Shown here piece by piece: positions 1 through 63,100 of a DNA stretch of 64,000 nucleotides. Each line of letters begins with the position of its first letter. Positions within the stretch are counted from its first letter, which is position 1. This DNA is from Octopus sinensis. Taxonomy: Eukaryota. The position numbers are program-made. The stretch lies in contig NC_043014.1 of NCBI RefSeq assembly GCF_006345805.1, positions 36,704,001 through 36,768,000 on the forward strand, read 5' to 3'.

Positions 1-3000
1 TATTGCCGGCTGAAAAAAGCTACAGTCAAATAGAAGAAGAGGCATTAGCCATCATATTTGCGGCAAAATAATTCCATTAATTTATACATGGAAGATGGTT
101 CCGTCTGCAGATAAACTACAGTCCATTATTGTCTATATATCGAAAAAGTGTCTTTCCATTCATGAAACCAATTGATTGAAGCTCTGGGGAACGATCCTAT
201 TGAATTACGAGTTCAAAATGGAGTATTTGCCATCGAAAAATTGGGACATGCAGATGGATTGTCAAGATTAATACTAAAATACAGTGAACCACTACAAGAC
301 AGTGATAGCGGCGTTAGAAACCGAAAATGAAATAAAAAAACATATTGTGCAATGTTTTACGCGAATTGCCGCTGTTGTTGGAGGAAATAAAAATGAAGGC
401 AGAGACATACGAGTTTATCACAGAAATGAAAATATAGTGAAATCAGAAGAAACAAATAAAAAAAATACGTGTGGCTGAAAGTAACAGAGTTTCGAATTTG
501 TATTTGATATATGATAATGTGCTTATGTAGAGGGGATCGTAATGCCTACCTCACTGCAAGGTCGAATGTTAAAGAAATTCCAAACTGGACAACCAGGAAT
601 TTCTAGAATGAAGTTGCTTATGAGGAGTTATGTTTTCTGACCAAAAATGGATCTAGATATCTAGAAATTAGTAAAATCCTGCTGTGGCTGTGTTCTTGCA
701 GCGAAAGCACTGCCTATGAAATTCCAACCATGGCCAAACACCAATATTCCATGGTCCAAAATATGCATACACTTCGCAGGATCGTTAAACCGATCATTTT
801 ATCTAATAGTGGTATATAGCTATACAAATGTGAAAATGTGGCAAACTGAACTCAACGGTAACAGTAAAATTTCTAAGGCGGCGAGCTGGCAGAAACGTTA
901 ACACGCCGGGCGAAATGCGTAGCCGTATTTCGTCTGCCGTTACGTTCTGAGTTCGAATTCCGCCGAGGTCGACTTTGCCTTTCATCCTTTCGGGGTCGAT
1001 AAATTAAGTACCAGTTACGCACTGGGGTCGATATAATCGACTTAATCCGTTTGTCTGTCCTTGTTTGTCCCCTCTGTGTTTAGCCCCTTGTGGGTAGTAA
1101 AGAAATAGGAAACAGTAAAATTTCAACACGAACTTTATGGTAGGTATGATGTCTCGGACACCATAGTATCTAGATACAGTACACAATTCACGGCGAATGA
1201 ATTTAAGAACTTTTGCACGATGTACTCAATTGAACATATAAAACTCCTCCGTATCAGCCAAGATCTAACGGGCAAGCAGAAAGTTCGTTGATACATTTAA
1301 AAGAGCATAACAGAAATCGAGAAACAAGCTAGTCGATGACACAACATTCACGCAATACTTGGGGGATTATAGGATAACACCAAACCCAAACGCTTTTTCA
1401 GGTTCGAAAACTAAAGTCAAATTTTGACAAGATACTACTGGTGAATGATGAATGATTATTCTCACCACGAACACGTCGTAAGCGATGTCTTTTCTCTACA
1501 CTTCTAATTTCCTGTAAATATTTCTTTTTGATTAAACCCAATATCTGTTATTAAATTTACCCATCAATTCCTGCGTAACTGGTTGGCTAATTTGATATGC
1601 ACAACTTCTCCATTTTGTGTGAGATATGTTCCGTCTTCAGTATCCTGAAGCTGTTTATTAATCTCGTCTATGTTGATTGTATTGATAACCAATTTGACTT
1701 CACTGTAACCAGCTGCCCAAAACTGTGGACAACATACACAATGCCTATCGGTTATTTTGTAAACAATTTATCTACAACCCAAATATCCTACTGTTATTTC
1801 TTCGGCGTTGGTGATACCGGTTTGACAGTTGTGAGTCGGAGCGCACTAAGTATCATTCCTAATAATATTATTAATATTACATAAGGGTATAAGTGTATGT
1901 TAATGAAAAGAGTATATACATAAATGGAAATACGCATGCATACATATATTCAAAATCACGCGTGTGTGTAAACGTACACAAAATATGCATGCCCCCATAT
2001 ATATATAAATATGAATGCAAGCGTATATCTAAAAGAAACTTTGCCCAGATATTTGCACCCCCCATCAAGGAAACATATCCATTTCATGTATGCAAATGCA
2101 CAGTAAACCACATACATATAACCACATAAATATAGCTTGTGTGCAAAGACCCACACGTATAAAAACATGAAAGCATATTCGTATGCACGAATGCACAAAG
2201 ACACACACACACATGTATGAAAAGTATGAATACATACAATGGCATAGATACATCGTAAGCATATATAAACGAAAATACCTCTATGTGGAATTTTAACTAA
2301 CAAGAAATAGTAGCCAGCCACGTACATATCACGAAACCTGTCTTAAAAGAAAATTGGACACATTGGATATTAAAGTTGTAGTTATATCATTCCTGAAATG
2401 AACGGATGTAATTGTCTACCCAGAATACCTTCGACCACCGTCGACTCTTAGATAGCGGTTGAGCTGAGGCTAAATAAACATTGTTACAAGAAAAGGGGAA
2501 ACATTAATCAGGGTAAGAAATAGAAAATTAACTTACTTTTTTTACGAACTTATAACTCATTGGAAATTTGTGCCTTAAGTGAACCAAAGTTTGTTTTACA
2601 TGTGATATTTGTGTCAGATACGTCTCTGGGTGGTGGAATGAAAGTATAATCGGATGATACCAGAGAATAACAGCTTGCAGTAAGCGGGATTTTCTCATTT
2701 TTGACGAAATAAAATTTTTTACCATTTTTTATCACAATCCACGTAAAGGTTAGTTGCGATTTAAAAGGTGCCCCAACAGTTGCTACACATCTTAGGTGTC
2801 TTACTTCTCTGCCTTCTTCATTAAATCCGTCGGCAATTTGCAGACTCTCTAACCTAGATTTTGCTGAAAAGAAATCGATCTAATATAGCAAAATGTTAGA
2901 ACAATATGCTTTGACTATTGGGTGGTTTCACTAATATAAACAACAATCTTCATACTAAACTAAAATGGTTAACACCACTCGAATGGTTCTTGATGCTGGA

Positions 3001-60100: not shown

Positions 60101-63100
60101 TGAATTTTCAGCCGTCCATCTTCTAGGTACCTCTAATTTATTGTAAATAAGCACGCGTTATGAGACATTTGCTGACGAGTAATGACAGGAAAGTCTGTGT
60201 TCTACTTCTATATGCATGTATGTGTAGGTGCCTCTGTGTGTGTTTGCGCGTGCGTGTCTAAGCACTTGTCTGGGTGGCACAGAAATACAGAAAGCACGGC
60301 AAATAACGAAGTGAGAAAGATTGTGTGTTGGAGCCGAAAAGAAAATATTTTCTTTAATTTTAACTTACACTCCCTGTTTTTCATTAACAGCGCAATTATA
60401 GCTGACAACAACGTTGAAATTACAACGCGGCTCCCAGTAACTGAAATATGACGAAAAGACATGTATGATTCAGGTAAAAATTATGGTTAAAACAGCAAAA
60501 GAATAAGAAAACTTGAGAGAAAGTTGGAAAATATATAAGCGTGAATAATGAAGTGTGATGATTTGGTATCAAGGGGCATAACTCTTAACTGAACCCATCA
60601 TCCTTTTCACAACAACTACAAACCGGATGTGTCTGTTCTCCTCCAACAATAGAAAGCAGTCACCATATTTCATTTCATATCAGCTACCTGTGATGTGCGC
60701 AGGGGTGCATAATCGGATTATTGCCTGACACTCTGGAAAGCCTAGAAGGATTCTGATTGGTAAATCGGCTGTAATCTCTCTCTATATAAATGGCAGTTTG
60801 TCTGTGTGTGTTTCTGTGTGTCTGTTAGGTTGTACCCTCACCCTGACCACGGCTTTCAACCGATTCTGATGAAACTTGACACACACATAGCCCAATGTCA
60901 TAATTCAAAACTAACGCAGCGAAAATTTTGGAAAGTGCCCCCAGTTCTGAAAAAAATCGATAAATTCGACATGGGGTCGAGAATCAGAAACACAAACTGT
61001 CTAGGGGACGCAACTCGACCTTTTTAACTAAAAAAATTTACCATCACTTTTTTCCCATTTTTTGGCTATAACTCTCTAAAAATGCTTTATAGTTATTTCC
61101 CTTACAAACCCGAGCAACGCCGGGCGATACTGCTAGTGGATGTATAAAATTGTACATTTCGGATAATGTGAGTGTGTGTGTCTATGTATGTATGTATGTA
61201 TGTATGTATGTATGTATGTATGTAGGTAGGTAGGTAGGTAGGTAGGTTGGTAGGTAGGTAGGTAGGTAGGTAGGTAGGTAGGTAGGTAGGTAGGTATGCA
61301 TGTATGTACGTATGTATGCATGTATGTATGCATGTATGTATGTATGTATGTATGTATGTGAATGTATGTATGTGTGTATATATGTATATATATGTGTGTG
61401 TGTATGGATGCATGTATGTATTATGCATGTATGTATGTATGTAGGTATGTATGTATGTATGTATGTATGTATGTATGTATGTATGTATTATGTATGTGAA
61501 TGTATGTATGTGTGTACATATGTATCGGCGACTAAACCGGCAACCCTACCAAGCTTGCTTGGTGAGGAGGGTGTTTATTGGACACCTGCGGGATGAAAAA
61601 CAAAATTCGTCAAAGGGCGGGGGAACTCTTGAGAGTCAACGGCCATCCAATAAATGTCTAAAGGCTGTATCATGCGCGGGGACATAGAAATAATCGGACT
61701 GAATACCCGATCGTGCAGTTAAACCATTGGGAATGAAGGACTTCTAGCCTTTGTTAGGGCATCCTTCTAGGAGAAGGTAACTCAGGTAACTGGGATAACT
61801 CCGACATAAAACCTGCGGCTCAGTGGCTACCGATGATGTTGACTTGTTCTTCTTTTCGGATTATGGCTGCTTAGTGAGTGGGATTGACTCAGTGCACAGC
61901 CTTTCCTCACTTTAAAAAAATCTCTTGCACAGGCATTGCACGATAACAACATTGATTAAGCTTCGTGCCATGGCCGTACTCGATAACGAGGGGGCAGCCA
62001 CCATGTATGTATGTATGTATGTATATATGTATGTTTGTTTGTTTGTATGTATGTATGTATGTATGTATGTATGTATGTATGTATGTAGGTAGGTAGGTAG
62101 GTAGGTGGTTGGTAGGTAGGTAGGTAGGTAGGTAGGTAGGTAGGTAGGTAGGTAGGTATGCATGTATGTACGTATGTATGCATGTATGTATGCATGTATG
62201 TATGTATGTATGTATGTATGTGAATGTATGTATGTGTGTATATATGTATATATATGTGTGTGTGTATGCATGCATGTATGTATGTATGCATGTATGTATG
62301 TATGTAGGTATGTATGTATGTATGTATGTATGTATGTATGTATGTATGTATTATGTATGTGAATGTATGTATGTGTGTACATATGTATCGGCGACTAAAC
62401 CGGCAACCCTACCAAGCTTGCTTGGTGAGGAGGGTGTTTATTGGACACCCTGCGGGATGAAAAACAAAATTCGTCAAAGGGCGGGGGAACTCTTGAGAGT
62501 CAACGGCCATCCAATAAATGTCTAAAGGCTGTATCATGCGCGGGGACATAGAAATAATCGGACTGAATACCCGATCGTGCAGTTAAACCATTGGGAATGA
62601 AGGACTTCTAGCCTTTGTTAGGGCATCCTTCTAGGAGAAGGTAACTCAGGTAACTGGGATAACTCCGACATAAAACCTGCGGCTCAGTGGCTACCGATGA
62701 TGTTGACTTGTTCTTCTTTTCGGATTATGGCTGCTTAGTGAGTGGGATTGACTCAGTGCACAGCCTTTCCTCACTTTAAAAAAATCTCTTGCACAGGCAT
62801 TGCACGATAACAACATTGATTAAGCTTCGTGCCATGGCCGTACTCGATAACGAGGGGGCAGCCACCATGTATGTATGTATGTATGTATATATGTATGTTT
62901 GTTTGTTTGTATGTATGTATGTATGTATGTATGTATGTATGTATGTATGTATGTATGTATGTTTGTTTGTATGTATGTATGTATGTATGTATGTATATAT
63001 GTATGTATGTATGTATGCAAATTAAGACTATGATAAAGACAATAACCACTAGTTTTACAATACAGTACATAGTGATTAATTGTTTCTCATCCACGTTAAT

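Follow-up and report, generated by a model that had tools for sequence, protein, structure and literature searches.

Three tandem leader-V-C genes of a divergent, apparently Octopus-restricted immunoglobulin family with strongly diverged coding exons

The window analysed here, a 64-kb stretch of Octopus sinensis DNA, holds three tandem units, and it is fairly probable that each unit carries an intact gene encoding a leader, a V-type and a C-type immunoglobulin (Ig) domain, belongs to a divergent Octopus Ig family and specifies a protein that would act as a soluble binder. The window genes are members of an uncharacterised, apparently octopus-restricted V + C family, of which one (copy 2) is already annotated, and their coding exons are about two-fold more diverged between units than the neighbouring non-coding DNA, the pattern expected of recognition molecules under diversifying pressure. 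A sequence-only reading of this DNA had proposed a hidden, expanding tandem family of such genes in a cephalopod. The cephalopod host is confirmed by the identity of the V exon of copy 2 with that of O. sinensis LOC118766817, and self-comparison of the window shows a unit of ~19-20 kb that occurs about three times and is broken up by transposon remnants, so that the claim of a duplicating tandem array stands.

When exon borders were read by hand in the stop-to-stop frames of the minus strand, on which all exons lie and which holds three pairs of long related frames, exactly the three three-exon models that had been proposed were obtained, with coding totals of 756, 729 and 708 nt for copies 1, 2 and 3 (Table 1). 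All six introns are GT-AG and of phase 1, as had been claimed, 12 of the 12 splice sites are intact, and the internal exons (318, 321 and 315 nt) are therefore symmetric. The motifs noticed earlier are present in the exon translations, DVAAYAC or DVAAYSC in the V exons and CVA.V..PF......W together with NITC in the C exons. Each frame closes 12-17 codons past the last cysteine without a hydrophobic tail, and the predicted products of ~235-251 residues comprise a hydrophobic leader, a V-type Ig domain and a seven-strand C-type Ig domain, one domain per phase-1 exon. Searching the window with the nine exon translations (tblastn) recovered full-length V and C exons, exactly three of each. An in-frame stop codon lies 21-27 nt upstream of each leader ATG, and both the ATG and the N-terminus are kept among distant paralogues; the long N-terminus of copy 1 (MSYGYISVTGSRR...) is the family-wide MMSxGYIxV... 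N-terminus of these paralogues, which supports the start codon originally chosen, while copies 2 and 3 have a 30-nt deletion in the leader region.

Table 1. Exons of the three genes and associated features of the window (positions on the 64-kb stretch)
Feature	Coordinates	Strand	Description
Copy 1 exon 1	17335..17458	-	124 nt; ATG and hydrophobic leader, 41 codons + 1 nt; donor GTAAGT at 17334
Copy 1 exon 2	11472..11789	-	V-type domain, 318 nt, phase 1-1
Copy 1 exon 3	2550..2863	-	C-type domain and TAA stop, 314 nt
Copy 2 exon 1	37891..37984	-	Leader, 94 nt; RefSeq model uses an internal acceptor in this exon
Copy 2 exon 2	35833..36153	-	V-type domain, 321 nt; 100% identity to LOC118766817
Copy 2 exon 3	34306..34619	-	C-type domain and TAA stop, 314 nt
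Copy 3 exon 1	60369..60462	-	Leader, 94 nt
Copy 3 exon 2	57010..57324	-	V-type domain, 315 nt
Copy 3 exon 3	54452..54750	-	C-type domain and TAG stop, 299 nt
V-like pseudo-exon 1	23397..23687	-	Frameshifts and stops; AG and GT flanks remain; found by tblastn
V-like pseudo-exon 2	40877..41180	-	Frameshifts and stops; AG and GT flanks remain; found by tblastn
3′ block of copy 1	1444..2549	-	Conserved; poly(A)-signal-like hexamer starts at 1659
3′ block of copy 2	33208..34305	-	Conserved; hexamer starts at 33423; includes the extra last coding exon of RefSeq P0010
3′ block of copy 3	53299..54451	-	Conserved; hexamer starts at 53534

Searches, fold predictions and simulations were run exon by exon. 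With the 37-row family alignment as input, AlphaFold2 folds the V exon (predicted local distance difference test score, pLDDT, 95.0; predicted template modelling score, pTM, 0.86) into strands A, B, C, C′, C″, D, E and F, at residues 2-7, 19-27, 33-38, 41-49, 54-60, 64-66, 73-81 and 90-94, plus a short G strand. All 46 matches listed for this model in a Foldseek comparison with the PDB are entries containing nanobodies or antibody Fv/Fab, as judged at the level of the entry (best E 7.2e-4; TMq 0.51-0.69), and because the PDB is rich in antibodies this ranking is partly an effect of their abundance. The B-strand cysteine, Cys24, and the V-set motif D-x-[GA]-x-Y-x-C, at the DVAAYSC93 positions, are present in all three copies, and Cys24 is kept in 30/32 and Cys93 in 33/34 other family members. 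The C exon is predicted to form seven strands (pLDDT 91.6) with a Cys-Trp-Cys pattern, Cys25 (strand B), Trp41 (C) and Cys88 (F) each being kept in 28/28 other members. Language-model neighbours in the Atlas are C1-set and C2-set_2 clusters for the C exon (score 0.93, 180/256 features), and mollusc clusters (0.94) followed by V-set clusters (0.90-0.91) for the V exon. Matches of the family profile in the PDB are nearly all Ig-superfamily proteins, with antibody light chains best (E 1.1e-3), followed by CEA (1e07, E=0.025), CD22 and Fc-gamma-RII, and when family members are scanned singly with Pfam, ig is reached by 3/37 (best 4.8e-5), C2-set_2 by 2/37 (0.0057) and V-set by 1/37 (0.021). There is thus a good case, built largely on predicted folds and profiles, that the window exons encode a very divergent V + C pair of the Ig superfamily. 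Strands 36-45 and 48-57 of the C domain form a tight hairpin that, as judged from DSSP, points to a C′ strand, and C1 domains are also among the matches. The V-C2 label given earlier fits a V-type and a C-type domain, for the second of which C2 is plausible and C1 a possible alternative.

The family keeps five cysteines in the V domain and three in the C domain. From the models we infer three intradomain disulfides, V Cys24-Cys93 between strands B and F, V Cys66-Cys78 between D and E, and Cys25-Cys88 in the C domain. Two cysteines remain, V Cys85 in the E-F turn, at the V-domain base, and Cys64 of the C domain, located at its top in the loop that precedes strand E. These two are kept in 33/34 and 27/28 other members, respectively, and in the profile-PDB alignments they coincide with the pair of additional cysteines present in the highest-scoring light chains, several of the light chains among the matches being named rabbit. 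In most rabbit light chains, as described in PMC10038998, the V and C domains are linked by Cys80-Cys171. An equivalent interdomain disulfide between V Cys85 and C Cys64, like that of rabbit kappa, is therefore predicted for the octopus proteins. When the V and C exons were folded as two chains without alignments, the complex score was 0.13 against a mark of 0.34, which speaks neither for nor against a contact. The leaders contain an uncharged stretch of 15-16 residues after basic residues, and the conserved N-x-T sequons (NITC) would be consistent with passage through the endoplasmic reticulum.

A two-domain profile compared with 1.84 billion representative sequences gave 40 matches at E<=1e-3, of which 34 remained at 1e-10 and 16 at 1e-30, and among these representatives no general Ig proteins were found. 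All ten named relatives, and it is to named matches that the restriction to Octopus applies, come from this genus (six from O. bimaculoides, three from O. vulgaris and one from O. sinensis), and seven of the O. bimaculoides matches from this search and the V-exon search taken together lie on one chromosome-sized contig. On this showing the family appears to be small, very divergent and restricted to Octopus. Measured against its reference members (LOC118766817, LOC128250269, LOC106876203, A0A0L8FP14 and their relatives), the window copies have the complete family pattern of a leader, a V domain with five cysteines (..GFDC..TCWK..PTC.D.A.Y.C) and a C domain with three. The family includes type I proteins with a transmembrane segment and cytoplasmic tail (P0028, P0046), proteins with glycosylphosphatidylinositol (GPI)-like C-termini, that is, a hydrophobic stretch after small residues (P0025, P0030, P0035, P0036, P0040, P0049), proteins with Thr/Pro-rich mucin-like stalks (P0016, P0035, P0039), and short tail-less forms like the window genes. 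The absence of a C-terminal transmembrane segment, reported earlier as a feature of the family, consequently holds for the three window genes and fails for their relatives, whose membrane anchors mark the window genes as a tail-less branch of a family of membrane proteins. In trees built from 10 of 37 rows for the V domain and 11 of 31 rows for the C domain, O. bimaculoides LOC106876203 and copy 1 form one group (support 99/97; identity 73% in V and 68% in C), so that the duplication predates the split of the two species; one of seven inner branches of the V tree and none of eight of the C tree are well supported.

The coding exons of the three units differ pairwise by 23.7%, 24.4% and 17.7%, and the non-coding DNA by 12.9%, 12.6% and 7.6% over 4.5-6.6 kb alignable per pair (Fisher p<=1e-13 for exons versus non-coding DNA). 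Two units also contain a V-like pseudo-exon, both of which the sequence-only reading had overlooked, one upstream of the leader of copy 1 and the other upstream of that of copy 2. The two pseudo-exons are 89% identical and have some defects in common, which implies that they died before their units were duplicated. Between these two units the pseudo-exons differ by 10.6% (31/292), the functional V exons by 21.7% and the functional C exons by 23.8% (p=1e-4 and below). Intact V′-type relatives exist elsewhere, namely P0037 and the N-terminus of P0019. At the same time, the coding exons are not simply free to change. Both exons stay open in 0.13-0.71% of 20000 random-substitution trials per pair (P 0.001-0.007). 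Insertions and deletions in the V and leader exons preserve the reading frame (3, 6 and 30 nt), as does the internal 9-nt deletion in the C exon of copy 3, the residual difference in C-exon length being due to the earlier stop of that copy; in the flanks, gap events number 7-10 per kb. The other members of the family, taken without the window copies, define 24 conserved columns; all three copies retain the residue in 22 of these, and the remaining two have conservative replacements (background 48%, P=9e-6). The window copies are intact genes under selection. Homogenisation of the flanks by gene conversion, combined with selection that keeps the exons apart, is as likely a cause of their excess divergence as faster amino-acid change alone.

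Variation in the V domain is concentrated in the loops BC, C′C″, DE and FG at its tip, with a mean entropy of 1.37 as against 0.59 for the base loops among eight close members (p=0.0018), and across all 37 rows 0 of 20000 permutations reach the observed value; the contrast between strands and loops as a whole is small (0.83 versus 0.96). Because variable tip loops are common to V domains generally, this is weak evidence for variation driven by a ligand.

From these sequences we infer a recognition role for the window genes, and we propose the following course of events. The leader would direct the protein into the secretory pathway, where the eight conserved cysteines would form four disulfides, the B-F bond of each domain, the V D-E bond and the single V-to-C bridge, which would be placed like rabbit kappa Cys80-Cys171 and lock the two domains together, and where the conserved NIT sequon would be N-glycosylated. 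After release, the protein would bind its target through the variable loops of the V-domain tip (BC, C′C″, DE and FG). Having neither effector domain nor anchor, such a soluble binder might serve as an opsonin-like coat, or as a decoy or ligand for the system to which its membrane-bound relatives belong. Diversifying selection, probably acting together with homogenised non-coding DNA, would keep the paralogues different.

Copy 2 is RefSeq LOC118766817 (database model P0010), annotated as "uncharacterized protein". In the search with its V exon, six proteins were found at E<=0.01 among 31 candidates, the next-best matches after its own model being O. bimaculoides proteins of 54-76% identity; a C-exon profile returned five of the same proteins among 1609 candidates, with no model of copy 1 or copy 3 of at least 182 aa. 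Parts of the V and C exons of copy 3 occur, fused to other pieces, in the chimeric database model P0019. Hence the family is hidden as far as clean models of copies 1 and 3 are concerned, and not so for copy 2, which RefSeq annotates, or for the parts of copy 3 in P0019. Similarly, the suggestion that it is undescribed fits our full-text literature searches, which found no publication on the family and did not extend to the supplementary tables of octopus genome papers, whereas copy 2 and the O. bimaculoides relatives are listed in RefSeq and UniProt as 'uncharacterized' or 'Ig-like domain-containing'. The two internal splice junctions of copy 2 agree with P0010 (..KKRES/IYVVE.. and ..IMK/A/KSS..), and the ends of the two models differ, P0010 beginning with MVK(G), leaving exon 3 at a donor unique to copy 2 and terminating in a further exon at 33331-33489. 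The sole match in the window to MVK(G) plus a donor is ATGGTTAAAG followed by GT (40875-40886, minus strand), the last 10 nt of pseudo-exon 2, and P0010 is therefore probably spliced from this pseudo-exon into the leader exon of copy 2. Isoforms X1 and X2 of O. bimaculoides LOC128250269 (P0011 and P0013) have a common leader and V domain and different C domains, one resembling the C exon of copy 1 and the other those of copies 2 and 3, which suggests alternative or cross-unit use of C exons. In addition, P0016 (1202 aa) and P0017 (726 aa) contain 4-5 V-C repeats.

A number of these and other results weigh against the reading that the window holds three intact genes for secreted V-C recognition proteins, and they have to be set beside the explanations that compete with it. 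As to the domains themselves, the strand-C Trp of V domains is replaced by Phe34 (also in 26/32 other members; position taken from spacing and DSSP), none of the six window exons has a significant Pfam match (the best being ig at E=0.079 and 13.7 bits, versus a cutoff of 21.8), and the fold matches of the C model in the PDB are generic Ig-like sandwiches, none at E<=1e-3, with ApaG and glycosidase sandwich domains at the top and the IL-18 receptor, beta-2-microglobulin and the MHC class II constant domain (HLA-DM) among them. Taken by themselves, the Pfam result and the top C-exon matches would suit generic beta-sandwiches that lie outside the Ig superfamily. This would be very surprising, however, in view of the antibody V domains that fill the match list of the V model, the D-x-A-x-Y-x-C motif, the B- and F-strand cysteines of both domains and the strand-C Trp of the second, the nearly uniform Ig-superfamily membership of the profile matches, the C1 and C2 sets among the Atlas neighbours, and the members of the family that do pass ig models; Ig membership, put forward earlier as a check, is thus borne out by fold prediction and weak profile matches and falls short of Pfam thresholds in the window exons. 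The divergence data carry their own reservations. The ratio of nonsynonymous to synonymous divergence (dN/dS), from counts summed over the V and C exons, is 1.06-1.24 among the three copies (dS 0.17-0.28), that is, near 1 and not shown to exceed it; about 50% of sites are invariant among the copies, as a uniform rate predicts; and tip-loop enrichment is not significant among the three window copies alone (p=0.25). Moreover, the non-coding baseline consists of BLAST-alignable blocks, which are biased to conserved DNA, and synonymous divergence (0.16-0.23) likewise lies above non-coding divergence, so that the exon excess may partly reflect homogenised flanks. A dN/dS near 1, uniform-looking rates and the lack of a clean protein model for copies 1 and 3 in the databases searched are what decaying pseudogenes or neutrally drifting relics that have lost constraint would show. 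Such a history is nevertheless already disfavoured, and we give it very little credence: open frames would be improbable (0.001-0.007), the indels of the V and leader exons and the 9-nt C-exon deletion keep the frame, all 12 splice sites are intact, 22 of the 24 family-conserved residues are retained, and the true pseudo-exons nearby are visibly decayed yet less diverged.

More weight attaches to doubts about what the transcripts and the function of these genes may be. Database models (P0010, P0019 and others) join V exons across units, and the three genes may not be independent at all but exon sets of longer or combinatorial transcripts (V′-V-C, V-C-V-C, or one V joined to alternative C exons), with the leader exons as alternative first exons or skipped. 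Since all exons are of phase 1, any V or C exon could be joined in frame; within the window, the MVK(G) start of P0010 followed by a donor fits nothing but the tail of pseudo-exon 2; in P0019 the V exon of copy 3 is preceded by an intact V′ exon that closely matches nothing in the window; and the multi-repeat models P0016 and P0017 and the two isoforms of LOC128250269 can be read in the same sense. We consider this arrangement unlikely. Every C exon reaches its in-frame stop 12-17 codons past the last cysteine, and no donor ahead of that stop is conserved. A separate leader exon, with a conserved ATG and N-terminus and an in-frame stop upstream, belongs to each unit, and a poly(A)-like hexamer lies in the conserved stretch that follows each stop. 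The V′ exons within the window are dead, and the fused database models may be artefacts of gene prediction in a tandem array. The leaders raise a further doubt, as they end in charged residues (..LLMKKRES, ..VMYHEKD) where relatives have ..SYTSA, which makes the predicted cleavage and secretion uncertain. Finally, the proteins might serve cell-cell recognition within the animal, such as Dpr/DIP-like wiring, self-recognition in sucker or skin, or sperm-egg interaction, and not recognition of non-self. The GPI-like and transmembrane anchors of the relatives are typical of adhesion molecules, the Pfam scan of the window exons shows no immune effector domain, and reproductive proteins also evolve fast. 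Wiring molecules, by contrast, are usually conserved, whereas here orthologues are 68-73% identical between two Octopus species and exons outrun their flanks. A role within the animal seems to us somewhat unlikely, and the sequence data at hand do not separate a reproductive from an immune reading. Going further than the soluble-binder reading that we prefer, one could imagine an immune-type receptor system that octopuses built from this lineage-specific V-C family, with paired membrane (transmembrane or GPI) and soluble sets, V-tip loops pushed apart by diversifying selection while gene conversion holds the remainder of each unit similar, possibly a repertoire enlarged by cross-unit splicing (V′ to V, or V to alternative C), and a V-C disulfide that arose independently of rabbit kappa; this we regard as decidedly improbable.

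The 3′ blocks that follow each gene are more conserved than the coding exons (91% identity between units 1 and 2), and their poly(A)-like hexamers stand at homologous sites 883-918 nt past each stop; they are probably 3′ untranslated region. In all three copies they contain an open minus-strand frame of 53 codons and an open plus-strand frame of 86-97 codons. Pfam gave no match for 33331-33489, the last exon of P0010, or for the 97-aa plus-strand frame at 1591-1884, and a coding reading of the blocks was set aside in favour of a conserved 3′ untranslated region. An Rfam search at gathering thresholds and a tRNA scan of the window each returned 0 matches.

The transposon remnants, which explain most of the differences in unit size, lie in introns and spacers at 42885-43592, 22408-22680, 5104-5328 and 44416-44715, all on the minus strand, and comprise mariner-type transposase (Transposase_1, 3.6e-20), a Tc3-type helix-turn-helix (8e-14) and weak retroviral-type integrase fragments. 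Other repeats in the window include an inverted pair of ~390 bp (14093-14481 and 30609-31000; 96% identity) with an open frame of ~80 codons in each member; a dispersed element of ~370-410 bp in three copies of ~90% identity (11994-12406, 13011-13385 and 50110-50521), one of them directly upstream of the V exon region of copy 1; a direct duplication of ~1 kb (61173-62162 and 62036-63019; 97% identity) rich in TACA/ATGT-type simple sequence; and long (AC)n, (GAA)n and (TA/TG)n microsatellites, as at 17100-17250, 48350-48600 and 51300-51700.

Adaptive immunity is not known in cephalopods, for which few recognition molecules have been described, and an Ig family that is confined to one lineage and comes in soluble and membrane-bound versions is a concrete candidate for self/non-self recognition in the octopus. 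The coding exons are islands of divergence within otherwise similar tandem units, and the array offers a natural test of exon diversification against flank homogenisation, in which the pseudo-exon of the same unit is an internal control. The disulfide proposed between the V and C domains is a simple structural prediction, open to a direct check. Should the genes turn out to encode ordinary adhesion or reproductive proteins, the result would be a well-defined new Ig subfamily and little more.

Among known systems, the CD2/CD48/CD58/SLAM and CEACAM/PSG families resemble the octopus family in having an N-terminal V domain followed by a C-type domain, in mixing transmembrane, GPI-like and secreted forms, and in forming tandem arrays that diverge quickly, and CEA is among the weak profile matches. 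They differ from it in showing no significant sequence relationship to the octopus proteins, which are lineage-restricted, named matches being from Octopus, and the octopus V domain keeps the canonical disulfide and has two extra disulfide candidates. Ig light chains, rabbit kappa in particular, are similar in size and in the order V then C, and are the best profile matches in the PDB; the alignment is collinear from the F-strand motif of the V domain through the C domain, and both extra cysteines coincide. In contrast to light chains, the octopus genes have no J segment, the G strand being encoded by the V exon itself, which runs up to a splice donor. The similarity to light chains is marginal and probably convergent. 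Rearrangement of the V(D)J type was considered and ruled out: 0 exact heptamer-spacer-nonamer signals occur in the window, lone heptamers are at chance frequency (11 where 6.6 are expected; three share a homologous intron site), and the V exon is spliced. The motif CACAGTG (CACTGTG on the coding strand) is found 85-161 nt after each V exon (11305-11311, 35742-35748 and 56919-56925), with no nonamer beside it.

FREPs, VCBPs, Dscam, hemolin and the molluscan defence molecule are, like the window genes, invertebrate members of the Ig superfamily that are multigene or diversified and have been proposed to act in recognition. Unlike these families, the window genes encode two Ig domains only, without fibrinogen, chitin-binding or fibronectin domains, and stop directly after the C domain. 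Neither FREP, VCBP, Dscam, hemolin nor molluscan defence molecule families were recovered by the family profile at E<=1e-3, and the Pfam scan of the exons shows no lectin, fibrinogen or chitin-binding match, in keeping with the earlier claims that the window genes lack a lectin-type domain and are distinct from families that carry other domains. A parallel to the divergence pattern lies outside the invertebrate Ig families, in genes whose exons diverge faster than their introns, such as MHC class I, snake-venom phospholipase A2 and conotoxins. The octopus proteins are unrelated to these, and positive selection and homogenised flanks are not separated here; what they have in common with them is a set of duplicated units whose exons are about twice as diverged as the flanking non-coding DNA.

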